Shown in pieces: positions 1,437 through 29,625 of a stretch of 39,718 nt of DNA. Every line of letters begins with the position of its first letter. Position 1 is the first letter of the stretch. Origin of the DNA: Escherichia phage ElsieAttenhofer_Bas105; the sequence record PQ850601.1; one strand, 5' to 3'. A model generated the notes under the pieces. That model saw only the letters and a list, made by a program, of their open reading frames with translations. It was not told the origin of the DNA and did not search any database. A program made the translations under genes and the position numbers.

Positions 1437-1607
1437 ATGATTAGAGTTAAATGCTTAAAGTCGGACTCAAATGGGATTCTTGAGGTGGGTTCAGTCTACT
1501 GGGTGGACTCGCTTGAAGACATTGACTCCTATGTGCATATTAGAGGAGGGCGATACATTGGTATGTTCCCCTCTAAGTGGTTTGAACCTAAGGAGGTGAA
1601 GCATTGA
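1437..1607 (+). CDS. Small hypothetical protein (56 aa)
   Basis: Own translation [56 protein letters not shown]; strong RBS AAGAGGGGGAAG upstream; stop overlaps the terminase start. Confidence 0.3.
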
Positions 1608-3367
1608 GTAAAGACTTAGTGGCGCGTCAGGCGCTAATGACTGCACGTATGAAGGCAGACTTCGTGTTCTTCCTGTTCGTCCTGTGGAAAGCTCTGTCAC
1701 TCCCAGTCCCGACTCGCTGTCAGATTGACATGGCGAAGAAACTATCGGCTGGGGACAACAGGCGCTTCATCCTACAGGCGTTCCGTGGTATAGGGAAGTC
1801 CTTTATTACGTGTGCCTTCGTTGTCTGGAAGCTATGGAACAACCCAGACTTGAAGTTCATGATTGTGTCGGCCTCAAAGGAACGAGCTGATGCTAACTCC
1901 ATCTTCATCAAGCGAATCATCGACCTCATGCCTCAGCTTCAGGAACTCAAACCTAAGCAGGGACAGCGAGATGCGGTTATCAGCTTCGACGTCGGACCAG
2001 CCAAGCCAGACCACTCACCTTCGGTTAAGTCCGTTGGTATCACTGGTCAGTTGACTGGTAGTCGTGCTGACATCCTGATTGCCGATGACGTGGAGGTTCC
2101 GAACAACTCAGCGACTCAGGCTGCCCGAGACCGTCTGTCAGAGCTTGTGAAGGAGTTCGACGCTATCCTGAAGCCGGGAGGTACAATCATCTATCTGGGT
2201 ACTCCTCAGAACGAGATGACCTTGTATCGTGAGCTGGAAGGCCGTGGGTACACCACTACTATCTGGCCTGCTCGTTATCCACGCGACAGGAAGGACTGGC
2301 AGTCTTACGGAGACCGTCTGGCTCCCATGCTTCAGGCAGAGCTTGAAGAGGACCCTGAGGCCTTCTATTGGCGTCCGACCGATGAAGTTCGATTCGACGA
2401 TACTGACCTGAAGGAACGTGAGCTGTCCTACGGTAAAGCTGGCTTCGCTCTACAGTTCATGCTTAACCCGAACCTAAGTGATGCTGAGAAGTACCCTCTG
2501 AAGCTCCGTGACCTTATCGTAGCCGACTTGGACCCAGCGTCCAGCCCAATGGTCTACCAATGGTTGCCTAACCCTCAGAACAAGCGTGAGGACGTTCCTA
2601 ACGTTGGACTCATGGGTGACTCATACCACACGTATCAAACTGTAGGTTCTGCCTTCAGTTCGTACACCCAGAAGATTTTGGTCATTGACCCTAGTGGTCG
2701 TGGTAAGGATGAAACTGGCTATGCGGTACTGTACCAGCTCAACGGCTACATCTTCGCTATGGAAGTTGGTGGTATGCGTGGTGGTTATGAAGACTCTACG
2801 CTGGAAGTACTAGCTAAGATTGGTCGTAAGTGGAAGGTCAACGAATACGTCATTGAGGGTAACTTCGGTGATGGTATGTACCTTGAGCTATTCAAGCCTG
2901 TAGCGGCCCGTATCCATCCTGCGGCTGTAACTGAAGTGAAGAGTAAGGGTCAGAAAGAACTCCGAATCTGTGACGTTCTGGAGCCTATCATGGGGTCTCA
3001 CCGACTTATCGTTAACGCTGCTGCTATCGTCCAAGACTACCAGTCGGCCTCTGATAAGGATGGTGTTCGTAACCCTATCTACTCTCTCTTCTACCAGATG
3101 ACACGTATCTCTCGTGAACGTGGAGCCTTGGCACACGATGACCGACTTGACGCGCTGGCTATAGGTGTACAGTTCTTCGTTGAGTCTATGGCTAAGGATG
3201 CCAACAAGGGCGAACGTGAAGTCACTGAGGAGTGGCTGGAGGAACAGATGGAGAACCCACGGAAAGGCTTCGAGTCCATCCACACTGAGTTCTGGGACAA
3301 TGGGGTCCGGGTAACTCACGATACGGACGACGAGCTGGGACTAGGGTCATACGTTACGTTCCACTAG
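1604..3367 (+). CDS. Terminase large subunit (T7 gene 19 homolog), TTG start
   Basis: 587-aa ORF colinear with remembered T7 gp19 ([19 protein letters not shown] Walker A-like, [24 protein letters not shown] nuclease); N-terminal alignment and TAAGGAGG 7 nt upstream support the TTG start at 1604. Confidence 0.95.
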
Positions 3368-3461
3368 CTGAATGAATAATTATAGGTGAAAGCTGCATGA
3401 ATACGCGGTTAGTAACCTATAGTTACTACCAGTCTAACCTACTGTTTTACAAGGAGTTTTG

Positions 3462-3484
3462 ACTTAACTATCACTATAGGGAAG
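3462..3484 (+). promoter_or_regulatory. Phage RNAP promoter (phiOR-like, near right genome end)
   Basis: TTAACTATCACTATAGGGAAG matches the 12-copy promoter consensus; predicted +1 G at 3479. Confidence 0.7.
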
Positions 3485-3664
3485 ACCCCCGGTTACTTAT
3501 AGTATTACTGTAGTGAATATACATATGCAGACTTTATGCAAGACCTTAGGAGGCAGACTCCGAGTTCTTACCTAAGGCTTGCACCGATGGAAGGAGGGTG
3601 ATATTAATCATAATCCCTCCAATACAGATAGTCACCGACCATAGATACAGGAGGTATGTAGCAT

Positions 3665-3823
3665 ATGGCAAAGACCAAAGCTGTACTTAAAGCTCTGGCG
3701 ACCAATCGAGCTACATACAGGTTTCTTGCTGCTGTTCTACTTGCTGCTGGCGTTACTGCTGGAAGTCAGTGGGTCGGGTGGGTCGAGACTCTCGTATGTT
3801 CTCTGGTCTCTCAGTGTAATTAA
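3665..3823 (+). CDS. Small hydrophobic ORF (52 aa), possible gene 19.5-like
   Basis: ATG with GGAGG 10 nt upstream, downstream of the phiOR-like promoter; translation MAKTKAVLKALATNRATYRFLAAVLLAAGVTAGSQWVGWVETLVCSLVSQCN; position only. Confidence 0.25.
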   Translation: MAKTKAVLKALATNRATYRFLAAVLLAAGVTAGSQWVGWVETLVCSLVSQCN

Positions 3824-3982
3824 CGCAATCATGGTAACAATCAACGAAAGTAAGACCTAAGGTCAGTTCATAGCTGACGCTACTCTACTGACCTTAGCTA
3901 CTGTAGTCAAGGACTTTAGGTAACACCTTAAGAGAAACTCACTTAGGGTCATCCTACTTATTGGTCTATCCTAGTGTCGCCT

Positions 3983-4022
3983 GACCTACGGTCCTTGACC
4001 TACAGTGGCTGTGACCTACAGT
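3983..4022. repeat. Three direct copies of TGACCTACRGT in the genome-end region
   Basis: TGACCTACGGT at 3983-3993, TGACCTACAGT at 3996-4006 and 4012-4022; related CTACCTACAGT copies near 4285-4318. Confidence 0.6.
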
Positions 4023-4108
4023 AGTGACGATGAGTTTTGGACCAAAAGTTTGAGACCACATCTCACAGTTCAAGAACCTCAAGTCTCCCCATAGGCCCTC
4101 TTTTAGTC

Positions 4109-4250
4109 CAGACCAATAGTCCCTACCCATAGACCTTTGGTCTACACCTCTAGTCTATCATAAGGTTGGACCGGTTGTCAAGACTTCAGGTCAACTATAG
4201 GTCTAGGCTATGGCTGGAGGTTGGGACGATAGGTAGGGACTATTGGTCTG
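4109..4250. repeat. Perfect 19-bp inverted repeat pair flanking a 104-bp spacer
   Basis: CAGACCAATAGTCCCTACC at 4109-4127; exact reverse complement GGTAGGGACTATTGGTCTG at 4232-4250. Confidence 0.7.
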
Positions 4251-4375
4251 CCTCTGAGTCCCTATCTGTATCAGACCATAAGTCACTACCGAGCTACCTA
4301 CAGTCTAACTACCTACAGTCATCGACCATCGGTAATGCCGCTACCTACTGTATAAATTACCATGATAAACAGTTG

Positions 4376-4404
4376 TTGACAGTAGGTCTAACTTTGGTTT
4401 AATA
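4376..4404 (+). promoter_or_regulatory. Candidate sigma70 early promoter (A1-like)
   Basis: TTGACA at 4376-4381, 17-bp spacer, weak -10 TTAATA/TTTAAT around 4398-4404; first of three TTGACA elements upstream of ocr. Confidence 0.35.
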
Positions 4405-4514
4405 GCTTCCGTCAACACGACACGGCAACAACCGGATAGTGAAGACGCCGGGTCATCCCGGTTAAGTAGACAGCCTGATAAGTCATACGAACAACAGGCA
4501 GATGACAGAAGTAG

Positions 4515-4543
4515 TTGACAAGATGTAAGACTTAAAGTAGTAT
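4515..4543 (+). promoter_or_regulatory. Candidate sigma70 early promoter (A2-like)
   Basis: TTGACA 4515-4520, 17-bp spacer, -10 TAGTAT 4538-4543. Confidence 0.5.
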
Positions 4544-4669
4544 GATTCACCAAGTAGTACAGCGAGCCGGAACTGATAAACTACATCGGCTATGCGGAGT
4601 GACCAGCGCGGATATCTGGTCTACTGAGTAAGACGGTAGGTTACTACAGAGAGCGAGCTAAGAAAGTGA

Positions 4670-4698
4670 TTGACAAGATGGCTTGACTGTAGTAACTT
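4670..4698 (+). promoter_or_regulatory. Candidate sigma70 early promoter (A3-like)
   Basis: TTGACA 4670-4675, 17-bp spacer, -10 TAACTT 4693-4698; shares TTGACAAGATG with the 4515 element. Confidence 0.4.
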
Positions 4699-4898
4699 AT
4701 ACGGCAAGCAAGATTAGTGAGTCCCAACACTGAAACGGGATAGCGCGGCGACGACAGCCAATGCGAATGCTCTTTAACAATCTGGATAAACTCTTAATGT
4801 GCGCCGATAGCGACTAACTACAGGGTCTTTGAGTCTACATCTGAAGGCCCTGACTGATAGTCACTAACATACACAAACAACTTTGAGAGGATATAATT

Positions 4899-5243
4899 AT
4901 GGAACGTAACGCTAACGCATACTATGAGCTGCTGGCTGCAACTGTTGAAGCATTTAACGAGCGCATTCAGTACGACGAAATAGCTGAAGGAGATGATTAT
5001 CACGATGCGCTGCATGAAGTCGTAGACGATATGGTCCCGCACTACTACCACGAGATCTTCACGGTGATGGCTGCTGATGGTATTGACCATGAGTTCGAAG
5101 ACTCTGGGCTGATGCCTGATACCAAGGACGTAACGCGTATACTACAGGCTCGCATTTATGAGGCACTGTATAACGATGTGTCTAATAGCTCTGAGGTGGT
5201 CTGGTTCGAGGCTGAAGAGAGCGACGAGGAGGCCTGCGAGTGA
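4899..5243 (+). CDS. ocr: Ocr-like DNA mimic anti-restriction protein (T7 gene 0.3 homolog)
   Basis: 114-aa highly acidic protein; [43 protein letters not shown] nearly identical to remembered T7 Ocr; first gene after the early promoters. Confidence 0.85.
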
Positions 5244-6368: not shown

Positions 6369-9050
6369 ATGAGCGTCATCTCTATTGACAAACACGACTT
6401 CTCTGATGTGTCAAACGCCATTGAGCCGTTTAACCTGCTGGCCGACCACTACGGGCAAGACCTTGCAGTCAAACAGCTTCAGCTTGAGCATGAGGCATAC
6501 ACTGAAGGCGAGCGACGTTTCATCAAGAACCTTGAGCGCCAGACCGAGCGCGGGGAACTGGCAGACAATCAGGTCGCCAAGCCTTTGATGCAGACTCTGG
6601 TTCCTAAGATTGCGCAAGCCGTCAAGGAGTGGCACGAAGGTCCAGACGGGAAGCTGTCAACCTCTCGTCCTAGCGTAGCGTTCACCATGTTGAGTACTGA
6701 AGAGAAGGCCGTCAAGGATCGCTCTCTGCGTATCTCTTGCGAGTCTGCTGCGGTCATCATACTGAAGGTCATCCTCTCCAAGCTGGTCAAGCCTGAAGGG
6801 ATACCGATTACACCGATGGCCTCCGCGATAGGTCGCACACTTGAGGATGAAATCCGATTCGGTCGCATTCGTGACAAGGAGAAGGATCACTTCAAGAAGG
6901 CGATAGCAGATAACCTGAACAAGAGAGCCGGGGCATCATACAAGAAAGCCTACATGCAAGCGGTTGAGACCTCCATGTTGGAGCAAGGTCAACTGGAAGA
7001 TGCGTGGGGGACTTGGAGTCCGACCGAGGCTGTCCACGTTGGAATCAAGATGCTTGAGATTGTCATCCAGTCTACACAACTGGTCGAGCTTAAGCGTTAC
7101 GGTGCTGGCAATGCAGCGGCTGACGTTGAGATGGTCCACCTGTCAGACTTCTGGGTCAAGAAGATGGCACAACGCGGCTTCAGCCTTGCGGGTATCGCTC
7201 CAGTCTACCAACCTTGCGTCGTTCCGCCTAAGCCGTGGACTGGTGTCGTAGGCGGTGGGTACTGGGCCAAAGGTCGCAGACCACTCCCACTGATTCGCTT
7301 AGGGTCTAAGTCAGCGGTGGCACGTTACGAAGACGTGTACATGCCTGAAGTCTATGACGCTGTGAATATCATCCAGAATACGCCTTGGAAAGTTAACAAG
7401 AAGGTTCTGGAAGTGGTGAACATGGTCGAGAAGCTGAACAACACGCCTATTGATGACATACCTCAGATGGAACCGCTGAAGCCTGAGGACTATGCGGGTG
7501 AGACTGAAGAGGAACTCAAGGCATGGAAGAAGGCTGCTGCTGGTATCTACCGCCGAGAGAAGGCCAGGCAGTCACGTAGATTGTCACTGAGCTTTATCGT
7601 TAACCAAGCGAACAAGTTCTCTCAGTTCAAGGCCATCTGGTTCCCGTACAACATGGACTGGCGCGGTCGCGTCTACGCTGTGCCGATGTTCAACCCTCAG
7701 GGTAATGACATGCAAAAGGGTCTCCTGACTCTGGCAGTAGGTAAGCCTATTGGTGCTGATGGTTTCAAATGGCTGAAGGTCCACGGTGCAAACTGTGCGG
7801 GTATTGATAAAGTAACCTTCGAGGAGCGCATCAAGTGGGTGGAAGATAACCACGACAACATCATGGCTACCGCTAAGGCACCGATGGACAGCATTGAGTG
7901 GTGGGGCAAGTTAGACTCTCCGTTCTGCTTCCTAGCGTTCTGCTTCGAGTATGCTGGCGTAATGCATCACGGATTGTCTTACTCCTGCTCGCTGCCGATA
8001 GCATTCGATGGGTCCTGCTCTGGGATTCAGCACTTTAGCGCGATGCTTCGTGATCACATCGGTGGACATGCAGTAAACCTGACGCCTTCCGGTAAGGTAC
8101 AAGACATCTACCGCATCGTGTCTGACCGCATTGAGGAAGAGCTTAAAGTCCTGCTGGTTAACGGCACGGACAACGAGATGGTAACTCACGAGGACAAGAA
8201 AACTGGTGAGATTACCGAGCGTCTCAAACTGGGGACACGAGAACTGGCCCGTCAGTGGCTGACTTACGGTATGTCACGTAAGGTCACTAAGCGTTCAGTC
8301 ATGACTCTGGCCTACGGGTCGAAAGAGTACGGCTTCGCAGACCAAGTATACGAGGACATCGTGATGCCTGCGATTGACTCAGGGTCTGGCGCTATGTTCA
8401 CCGAACCAAGCCAAGCGTCCCGCTTCATGGCTAAGATGATTTGGGAAGCTGTGAGCGTGACCGTAGTTGCTGCGGTTGACGCGATGAAGTGGCTTCAAGG
8501 TGCTGCCAAGCTGCTGGCTGCTGAAGTGAAAGACAAGAAGACTGGAGAAATCCTGAAGCCTTGCCTTCCAGTACACTGGGTAACACCTGATGGGTTCCCG
8601 GTCTGGCAGGAATACCGCAAGAAGGATACCACTCGTCTGAACCTGATGTTCTTAGGGTCATTCAACCTTCAGCCTACCGTCAACAAAGGCACTAAGAAAG
8701 AGCTGGATAAGCACAAGCAGGAGTCAGGCATTAGCCCGAACTTCGTCCACTCACAAGATGGTAGCCACCTCCGCAAGACTGTAGTCCACACTCACCGCAA
8801 GTATGGCGTAATGTCATTCGCAGTGATTCACGATAGCTTCGGGACCATCCCGGCTGACGCTGAGTATCTGTTCCGTGGTGTCCGTGAGACGATGGTCGAG
8901 ACCTACCGCGACAACGATGTGCTGCTGGACTTCTACGAGCAGTTTGAATACCAGCTTCATGAGAGCCAGCGCGATAAGTTGCCAGAGCTTCCGAAGAAAG
9001 GTAAACTGAATATCGAAGACATCTTGTCTTCAGACTTTGCATTCGCTTAA
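6369..9050 (+). CDS. Single-subunit DNA-directed RNA polymerase (T7 gene 1 homolog)
   Basis: 893-aa ORF colinear with remembered T7 RNAP (FNPQGNDMxKGLLTLA, motif C VIHDSFGT, C-terminal SDFAFA); specificity-loop region reads GSFNLQPTVNKGTKKELDKHKQ. Confidence 0.97.
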   Translation: MSVISIDKHDFSDVSNAIEPFNLLADHYGQDLAVKQLQLEHEAYTEGERRFIKNLERQTERGELADNQVAKPLMQTLVPKIAQAVKEWHEGPDGKLSTSRPSVAFTMLSTEEKAVKDRSLRISCESAAVIILKVILSKLVKPEGIPITPMASAIGRTLEDEIRFGRIRDKEKDHFKKAIADNLNKRAGASYKKAYMQAVETSMLEQGQLEDAWGTWSPTEAVHVGIKMLEIVIQSTQLVELKRYGAGNAAADVEMVHLSDFWVKKMAQRGFSLAGIAPVYQPCVVPPKPWTGVVGGGYWAKGRRPLPLIRLGSKSAVARYEDVYMPEVYDAVNIIQNTPWKVNKKVLEVVNMVEKLNNTPIDDIPQMEPLKPEDYAGETEEELKAWKKAAAGIYRREKARQSRRLSLSFIVNQANKFSQFKAIWFPYNMDWRGRVYAVPMFNPQGNDMQKGLLTLAVGKPIGADGFKWLKVHGANCAGIDKVTFEERIKWVEDNHDNIMATAKAPMDSIEWWGKLDSPFCFLAFCFEYAGVMHHGLSYSCSLPIAFDGSCSGIQHFSAMLRDHIGGHAVNLTPSGKVQDIYRIVSDRIEEELKVLLVNGTDNEMVTHEDKKTGEITERLKLGTRELARQWLTYGMSRKVTKRSVMTLAYGSKEYGFADQVYEDIVMPAIDSGSGAMFTEPSQASRFMAKMIWEAVSVTVVAAVDAMKWLQGAAKLLAAEVKDKKTGEILKPCLPVHWVTPDGFPVWQEYRKKDTTRLNLMFLGSFNLQPTVNKGTKKELDKHKQESGISPNFVHSQDGSHLRKTVVHTHRKYGVMSFAVIHDSFGTIPADAEYLFRGVRETMVETYRDNDVLLDFYEQFEYQLHESQRDKLPELPKKGKLNIEDILSSDFAFA

Positions 9051-29575: not shown

Positions 29576-29625
29576 AAGGGCCTATAGATTTACCTTAACT
29601 ATCACTATAGGGACTATAGGCCCTT
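29576..29625 (+). promoter_or_regulatory. 12-bp perfect inverted repeat enclosing the phi13-like promoter (candidate R13-type RNase III site)
   Basis: AAGGGCCTATAG (29576-29587) and its reverse complement CTATAGGCCCTT (29614-29625) flank the promoter core. Confidence 0.45.
29593..29615 (+). promoter_or_regulatory. Phage RNAP promoter (phi13-like)
   Basis: CCTTAACTATCACTATAGGGACT; +1 at 29610. Confidence 0.75.

Follow-up and report, generated by a model that had tools for sequence, protein, structure and literature searches.

We analyzed the region at positions 3830-4340 of the genome of Escherichia phage ElsieAttenhofer_Bas105 (PQ850601.1) together with the genes that surround it. All positions refer to the complete sequenced stretch of 39,718 bp, called the window here, and features lie on the plus strand unless stated otherwise. 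The region is preceded by the gene of the large terminase subunit (gene 19, 1604-3367; Pfam PF22530, Terminase-T7 RNaseH-like, E = 1.6e-37) and by a small ORF of 52 amino acids (3665-3823), the final gene before the junction. This ORF was taken from the ORF list; it matched no Pfam family, and the homologous ORF of PE3-1 is gp19.5, so we refer to it as gene 19.5-like. Between both genes we found a site resembling a phage RNA polymerase promoter, TTAACTATCACTATAGGGAAGA (3464-3485). A search of the promoter pattern with up to three mismatches returned this copy and a second near-copy at 29595 only, with a chance expectation of 0. The phiOR promoter of T7 likewise lies between gene 19 and gene 19.5, and because the site occupies the phiOR position, rightward transcription through the junction is expected. 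On the right the region is limited by the first two early promoters of the host type (4376-4543), an A1-like one with TTGACA at 4376 and an A2-like one at 4515-4543; homology to the T7 A1-A2 region was judged by eye, while the consensus scan returned 4515-4543. They are followed by gene 0.3, the first early gene (4899-5243), which encodes the ocr DNA mimic (Pfam PF08684, E = 8.6e-33), and by the gene of a single-subunit RNA polymerase (6369-9050), recognized by a domain match. The region is thus placed as a junction should be, between the end of the late region (terminase and gene 19.5) and the early promoters with gene 0.3.

A query of 1.5 kb taken around the junction matched 387 phage records, nearly all of them Kayfunavirus (K1F-like phages of the T7 group), and the top match showed 93% identity over 98% of the query. 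The first base of the window coincides with the start of a gene, its end does not overlap its start, and the genome-end motif is present in it once. Therefore we read it as a complete genome that was cut open at an arbitrary position and in which the terminal repeat has been collapsed into a single copy. Such a single collapsed repeat is the state expected of a concatemer or of a circular assembly (general description in PMC5000459). Judged by its sequence, the window is a complete, circularly permuted genome of a K1F-like Kayfunavirus of the T7 group; its concatemer junction occupies 3830-4340.

The ends of this genome were located by homology to relatives with defined ends. The sequence TCTCACAGTTCAAGAACC forms the opening bases of K1F, SH3, SH4 and other end-defined genomes; in the window it occurs as an exact match at 4061 and nowhere else. 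The initial 18 bases of K1F, SH3, SH4 and others are found at 4061-4078, in a block that opens with TCTCACAGT. The K1F record opens with TCTCACAGTTCAAGAACCTCAAGTCTCCCCATAGGCCCTC and is identical to the window from 4061 for 44 bases; among K1F, SH3, SH4/SH5 and other Kayfunavirus genomes, the initial 48 bases are the same except for one variable position. In K1F, SH3 (39,444 bp), SH4 (39,274 bp) and four other genomes from IMG/VR, all of which open with TCTCACAGTTCAAGAACC, a second copy lies 178-196 bp before the right end; the distance is 178 bp in the K1F record and 179-196 bp in seven genomes of IMG/VR that include SH3 and SH4. At the other boundary, the final bases of the K1F record, CTGAGTCTC, are homologous to the sequence that ends at window position 4262; there the window reads CTGAGTCCC (4254-4262) and then TATCTGTAT. 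We infer from these matches a direct terminal repeat of 202 bp at 4061-4262, with base 1 of the genome at 4061; the right boundary is placed with a tolerance of about 0 to +5 nt from 4262, which is the spread among the records of relatives. Within the genus the length of the repeat ranges from 165 to 230 bp. The ends of SH3, SH4 and SH5 were established by run-off sequencing of virion DNA, which gave repeats of 183, 190 and 190 bp, and the published K1F repeat is 179 bp (PMC4925675; the K1F and SH3, SH4/SH5 repeats are described by Scholl and Merril 2005 and Hamdi et al. 2016).

The right boundary is marked by a motif, GAGTC(T/C)C followed by TATCTGTAT, at 4256-4271 (GAGTCCC in the window), which was invariant in 19 aligned relatives. 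Its second part, at 4263-4271, is the counterpart of the class II pause signal of the T7 concatemer junction (ATCTGTT), with which it agrees at 6 of 7 positions; it was unchanged across all Kayfunavirus junctions that were aligned, and each of the Kayfunavirus and T3-like junctions that we examined has TATCTGT directly after the repeat. In PE3-1 the same octamer is annotated as 'concatemeric junction'. The T7 boundary reads GTGTCCCT followed by ATCTGTTACAG (CCCT/ATCTGTT), whereas in the window CCC is followed by TATCTGTAT, and the pause motif differs at the seventh base. The class II signal of T7 has been described, and pausing at it is sequence-specific and independent of a hairpin (10.1101/2021.01.11.426313). 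According to the passage of PMC3276506 that cites Zhang and Studier 2004, the complex of T7 polymerase and lysozyme pauses there, interacts with gp18/gp19, and starts maturation and packaging. By analogy, the phage RNA polymerase would be expected to pause at TATCTGTA, which retains six of the seven T7 bases. The preliminary description had supposed that the noncoding stretch between the terminase and the early promoters must hold the terminal repeat and the packaging signals. This was borne out by TCTCACAGTTCAAGAACC at 4061 and by the boundary motif at 4256-4271.

Two ORFs cover the junction (3966-4130, minus strand, and 4166-4402, plus strand), neither of which matched a Pfam family. Many related GenBank records, which were annotated automatically, carry up to eight 'hypothetical protein' CDS across the noncoding junction. 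Since the two ORFs lack a Pfam match and overlap the terminal repeat, they and their equivalents in relatives are probably spurious calls. Inside the terminal repeat we also observed a leftward sigma-70-like site (4152-4181, minus strand) composed of TTGACA, a spacer of 18 nt and TAGACT, with an upstream TG. It agrees with the consensus at 10 of 12 positions and is a consensus match only. The leftward promoter A0 of T7, unlike this site, lies outside the terminal repeat, at position 224.

The terminal repeat is flanked on both sides by arrays of short repeats. Three copies of TGACCTACRGT, already named in the preliminary description, start at 3982, 3996 and 4012 (3982-4022), about 1 nt away from the span of 3983-4022 given there; they form the end part of the left-flanking array, the counterpart of T7 SRR, and are conserved in K1F and PE3-1. 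The related copies that had been placed at 4285-4318 are also present, at other coordinates: CTACCTACAGT occurs at 4294-4304 and 4309-4319, with a period of 15, and CTACCTACTGT at 4341-4351. Together they make up the right-flanking array (4294-4351), the counterpart of T7 SRL. The number of copies in this array differs between relatives and reaches at least five units; PE3-1, for instance, carries AACCATAGGTCTCAAC five times. Between this array and the first host-type promoter (4352-4376) we saw no phage-type promoter that would correspond to T7 phiOL, a point in which the window differs from T7. The recurring TTGGTCT motif was found at 3961, 4137 and 4243, three of the eight copies in the genome.

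A 10-bp frame, ACC-N4-GTC, recurs in the junction. We counted 10 matches to it at 3840-4360, where 0.65 were expected from the rest of the genome (approximately 15-fold enrichment), and 8 matches to its inverse, GAC-N4-GGT, where 0.73 were expected. Forward units fill the left flank where it ends, the left portion of the terminal repeat and the flank to its right. Units that are inverse only, at 4182, 4225 and 4238, were found in the right portion of the repeat; each of the other GAC-N4-GGT matches is either in a flank or part of a near-palindromic site that it shares with a forward unit. The orientation of the units thus switches inside the terminal repeat, and the entire junction is built from this unit. 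The short direct-repeat arrays correspond to those on either side of the terminal repeat of T7 and are no new feature.

Just past gene 19.5 lies the second inverted pair that had been reported. The segments CTAAGGTCAG (3857-3866) and CTGACCTTAG (3888-3897) do form such a pair, 1 nt away from the positions reported, and the full pair is longer, with 11-bp perfect arms CTAAGGTCAGT (3857-3867) and ACTGACCTTAG (3887-3897) in the array left of the terminal repeat, from which it is separated by about 184 bp. Both arms are conserved in K1F (approximately 623-665 of L003) and in PE3-1 (approximately 333-377 of L002), where the loop differs in sequence and length. The pair might be a hairpin at which a transcript ends or is processed. 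We also considered it as the site of the 'hairpin-end' intermediate of T7, which we do not claim, as T7 has no clear counterpart there.

The most conspicuous element of the junction is a 19-bp inverted repeat. As the preliminary description had stated, CAGACCAATAGTCCCTACC (4109-4127) is the exact reverse complement of GGTAGGGACTATTGGTCTG (4232-4250), and a spacer of 104 bp separates them. With 89% complementarity the repeat extends to 27 nt (4109-4135 and 4224-4250). In the whole window it is the sole inverted repeat with an exact seed of at least 13 nt and arms within 500 bp, and it is the longest there. We compared it with 100 first-order Markov shuffles of the window, in which the longest such repeat measured 10-16 nt (mode 12) and none reached 19. 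A chance match is difficult to reconcile with this maximum of 16, and all relatives have conserved sequence to which the arms are homologous. An artefact of assembly could be suspected, as the terminal repeat is collapsed to one copy and the region therefore underwent some assembly processing; against this, the same perfect repeat is found in the independent genome of Kayfunavirus AN24P4, in a different sequence context. Chance or artefact is therefore extremely improbable as an origin of the repeat, and this reading is effectively refuted. The perfect 19-bp repeat is real, non-random and lineage-specific. The junction with its terminal repeat, pause motif and flanking arrays belongs to a known type.

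The left arm occupies positions 49-67 of the terminal repeat and holds a forward unit, ACCAATAGTC; the right arm, in minus orientation, occupies positions 172-190, holds an inverse unit, GACTATTGGT, and leaves 12 nt between its end and the right boundary. Each arm consists of one copy of the unit (forward in the left arm, inverse in the right arm) adjoined by CCCTACC/GGTAGGG. A third, imperfect copy of the arm, CAGACCATAAGTCACTACC, is located just outside the terminal repeat (4272-4290, plus strand). It and the right arm make up an inverted pair (84%), whose centre at about 4261 coincides with the right boundary; roughly half of the relatives have this third copy. We saw no sign that the 104-bp spacer had been inverted through recombination of the arms, all relatives being colinear.

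We compared the arms within the closest clade (clade 1), a set of 19 sequences that comprised the window, AN24P4 and 17 relatives. The MAFFT alignment misplaced a gap of 1 nt in the left arm, so the arms were re-aligned pairwise. In these sequences the two most conserved blocks of the terminal repeat each have one of the arms at their inner edge. Pairing was complete (19/19) in the window and AN24P4, and involved 14-17 of 19 positions in the other 17. In the relatives the left arm is nearly invariant, CAGACCAA-AGGCCCTACC (consensus CAGACCAAAGGCCCTACC), and one base shorter than that of the window. The right arm varies at 4-5 positions, GGT[A/T/G]G[G/T]GACTAT[T/G/A/C]GGTCT[G/T] in the 19 sequences, and none of its variants was accompanied by a compensatory change in the left arm of the 17 clade-1 relatives. 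Apart from the arms, which are homologous position for position but imperfect in other Kayfunavirus phages (14-17/19 with a 1-nt indel, vs 19/19 in the window), the right block, the boundary and the flanking arrays of their terminal repeats are as in the window. In clade 2 a complementary stretch is found in another register, AGTCCCGACCAA / TTGGTCGGGACT, which is perfect over 12 bp in EcL30g (register shift: L044); its variation was likewise uncompensated.

Among approximately 34 non-redundant junctions, taken from GenBank and IMG/VR, the perfect form was restricted to the window and AN24P4. Nine more metagenomic junctions came from a scan with the end motif; all of them had the consensus left arm and none was perfect. 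A BLAST search with the left-arm region returned 114 records, with AN24P4 alone in the band of 95-99% identity, and the exact left arm plus one base gave 0 matches in IMG/VR and 0 in the JGI metagenomes. The terminal repeat of AN24P4 is 178 bp long, has no hairpin module and is bordered by different bases. As its length, modules and flanks differ from those of the window (202 bp), the perfect allele exists on two backgrounds. The earlier suggestion that the 19-bp repeat might be a dedicated site for protein binding or processing is left without comparative backing, as it is perfect in one other phage and, in the remaining relatives, paired at 14-17 of 19 positions without compensation. We saw no sign that pairing itself is selected, since the comparison of the arms gives a selected stem no support.

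A base-paired structure could act in two forms: an RNA stem in the read-through transcript, closed 12 nt upstream of the pause signal, that modulates how the polymerase pauses, or a fold-back of single-stranded DNA that acts in concatemer formation or in duplication of the repeat. In the predicted single-strand fold of 4061-4275 (215 nt) the 19-bp stem closes a multibranch structure, with energies of -77.8 kcal/mol for RNA (z = -3.25) and -34 kcal/mol for DNA (z = -3.12), and no shuffled sequence folded as well. This energy follows directly from the perfect 19-bp repeat and is therefore not independent evidence of function. Processing intermediates of T7 with hairpin ends, reportedly observed by Chung, Nardone and Hinkle in 1990 (cited in PMC5000459), would also favour such a structure. 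A base-paired element is disfavoured by the lack of compensatory change in 17 relatives, by the presence of the perfect form in only 2 of approximately 43 junctions and by the lack of a counterpart in T7. A scan of 3300-5000 returned no Rfam match at E <= 1 and 0 terminator-like sites, and the right arm is followed by CCTCTGAGTCCC, not by the run of T (U in the transcript) that, placed directly after a G+C-rich stem, characterizes a class I terminator of phage or host polymerase. Further, class II pausing is sequence-specific and hairpin-independent, as cited above, and a strong stem within one strand would compete with annealing between the terminal repeats of separate molecules. We regard a working base-paired structure, which is a prediction from folding models, as very unlikely.

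The middle of the terminal repeat proved to be a mosaic of exchangeable modules in the 19-sequence alignment. Phages of the K1F type have no TAGACC hairpin module, those of the IME177 type carry a different insert of 24 nt, and in L023 a stretch of 13 nt is deleted. The TAGACC hairpin and AGTCTATCATAAGG modules are usually alternatives; the window carries both, a combination shared by CY1 alone. In L030 (IMG/VR UViG_3300045988_000139), whose terminal repeat is 230 bp, a unit resembling the right arm, GGTGGGACTATTGGTCAACGATA, is repeated three times in tandem at positions of about 95-170. This threefold tandem indicates that such a unit can expand inside the terminal repeat.

The arms and the third copy at 4272-4290 might instead be oriented duplex sites for a packaging protein, e.g. 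the small or large terminase subunit. Inverted sites would then place two protomers symmetrically to the boundaries, and the perfect match would mean that both sites had been optimised to one consensus. The location of both arms at the inner edges of the most conserved blocks agrees with such sites, as does the third copy, which mirrors the right arm over the right boundary. Arrays of binding sites sometimes expand, as the right-arm unit did in L030, and uncompensated variation fits protein sites better than a stem. However, the left arm of most relatives has a 1-nt deletion with respect to the right arm, so that the two sites differ in nearly all functional phages; the third copy is absent from about half of the relatives, and the distances of the arms from the boundaries are unequal (48 nt vs 12 nt). 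Based on these sequence comparisons, we find sites of this kind rather unlikely as an explanation of the repeat, though less so than a stem.

The small palindrome of the window, TAGACC-TTT-GGTCTA (4130-4144), occupies what we call the hairpin slot, which is shared with T7 and T3-like phages and lies near positions 66-86 of the terminal repeat across the T7 group. In T7 (L048, positions 66-82) the slot holds GTCAACC-TTC-GGTTGAC and in T3-like phages TTAACC-TTC-GGTTAA. Kayfunavirus clade 2 has TAGACC-TTC-GGTCTA, also with a GAA loop, or TGACC-AAA-GGTCA; the IME177 group has an unrelated ACTGC-TCCTT-GCAGT, and the K1F group just GACC-GAT-GGTC. The slot was found at approximately 76-90 in L022/L028 and at 71-85 in L035-L037. 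The outer stem bases of the slot differ by lineage without loss of complementarity, a compensatory pattern; the common loop, closing pair included, is C-TTCG-G.

The junction of T7 resembles that of the window in several respects. Both lie between gene 19.5 and the early promoters with gene 0.3, and both have the end sequence TCTCACAGT; T7 begins TCTCACAGTG. The boundary with the pause motif, a small central hairpin and flanking arrays are common to both; Dunn and Studier are said to have described, in 1983, the short-repeat arrays SRL/SRR on either side of the T7 terminal repeat. The T7 unit CCTAAAG is found in forward orientation before the central hairpin, in an inverse-like form after it and again forward in the right array, which is the same plan as in the window, where the unit is ACC-N4-GTC (e.g. 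ACCTACAGTC). The T7 repeat measures 160 bp vs 202 bp in the window, and it contains no long inverted repeat: as the preliminary description had suggested, the T7 left end has nothing comparable, the longest inverted repeat in its terminal repeat being the 10-nt central hairpin. Taken as a sequence arrangement, the imperfect inverted order that underlies the 19-bp repeat is general in the genus and exists in a weaker form in T7.

We then considered how the perfect allele could have arisen. The ancestral arms were imperfect. With respect to the consensus, the left arm of the two perfect phages has a T insertion and a G-to-T substitution, both of which make it exactly complementary to GGTAGGGACTATTGGTCTG, a common right-arm allele that is carried by 4 of the 19 sequences, including L014 and L023; these two phages alone have the left-arm allele. 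Two independent random changes that are both directed toward complementarity are unlikely, so we favour template switching or gene conversion between the arms as the simplest account of how the left arm may have been converted. Quasipalindromes are known to be corrected by template switching (Ripley-type mutations), and the classic cases have short loops. The likeness is that an imperfect repeat was perfected by clustered changes (one insertion, one substitution), all of which copy the other arm. The case differs in that 104 bp separate the arms, in contrast to the short classic loops, and in that the event is deduced from comparison only. Alternatively, selection for pairing, instead of conversion, could have made the perfect allele. 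The allele is present in two phages with different flanks and modules, each time coupled to the matching right-arm allele, and complementarity of 14-17 of 19 positions is kept across the whole clade, as a weakly selected structure might look. Still, there is little power with n = 2, and selection cannot be told from conversion on the strength of two cases.

Overall, we consider it probable that the locus is a Kayfunavirus concatemer junction in which the 19-bp repeat is a by-product of the dyad layout of the T7 group, perfected by copying between the arms, with the pairing itself unselected. In such a junction the late phage promoter upstream would read through the terminal repeat, and the phage RNA polymerase, if it behaves as in T7, would pause at GAGTCCC followed by TATCTGTAT and recruit the terminase. 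The arms are probably kept as a putative duplex recognition sequence for the packaging machinery and not through pairing.

For annotation, these results place base 1 at window position 4061 and the terminal repeat at 4061 to approximately 4262. They also document that terminal repeats of the T7 group share a dyad layout, with forward units, the hairpin slot, inverse units and the pause signal, in which the middle is modular and exchangeable. It is conceivable, if distinctly unlikely, that the inverted arms found across the family are a functional dyad, in which the packaging complex or a fold-back of single-stranded DNA would draw the left and right cleavage sites together during duplication of the repeat. 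If so, the perfect allele would be a selected, improved version and not a neutral product of conversion. The inverted repeat itself would matter only if pairing proved functional; it would then provide a handle on how the single terminal repeat of the concatemer is duplicated.
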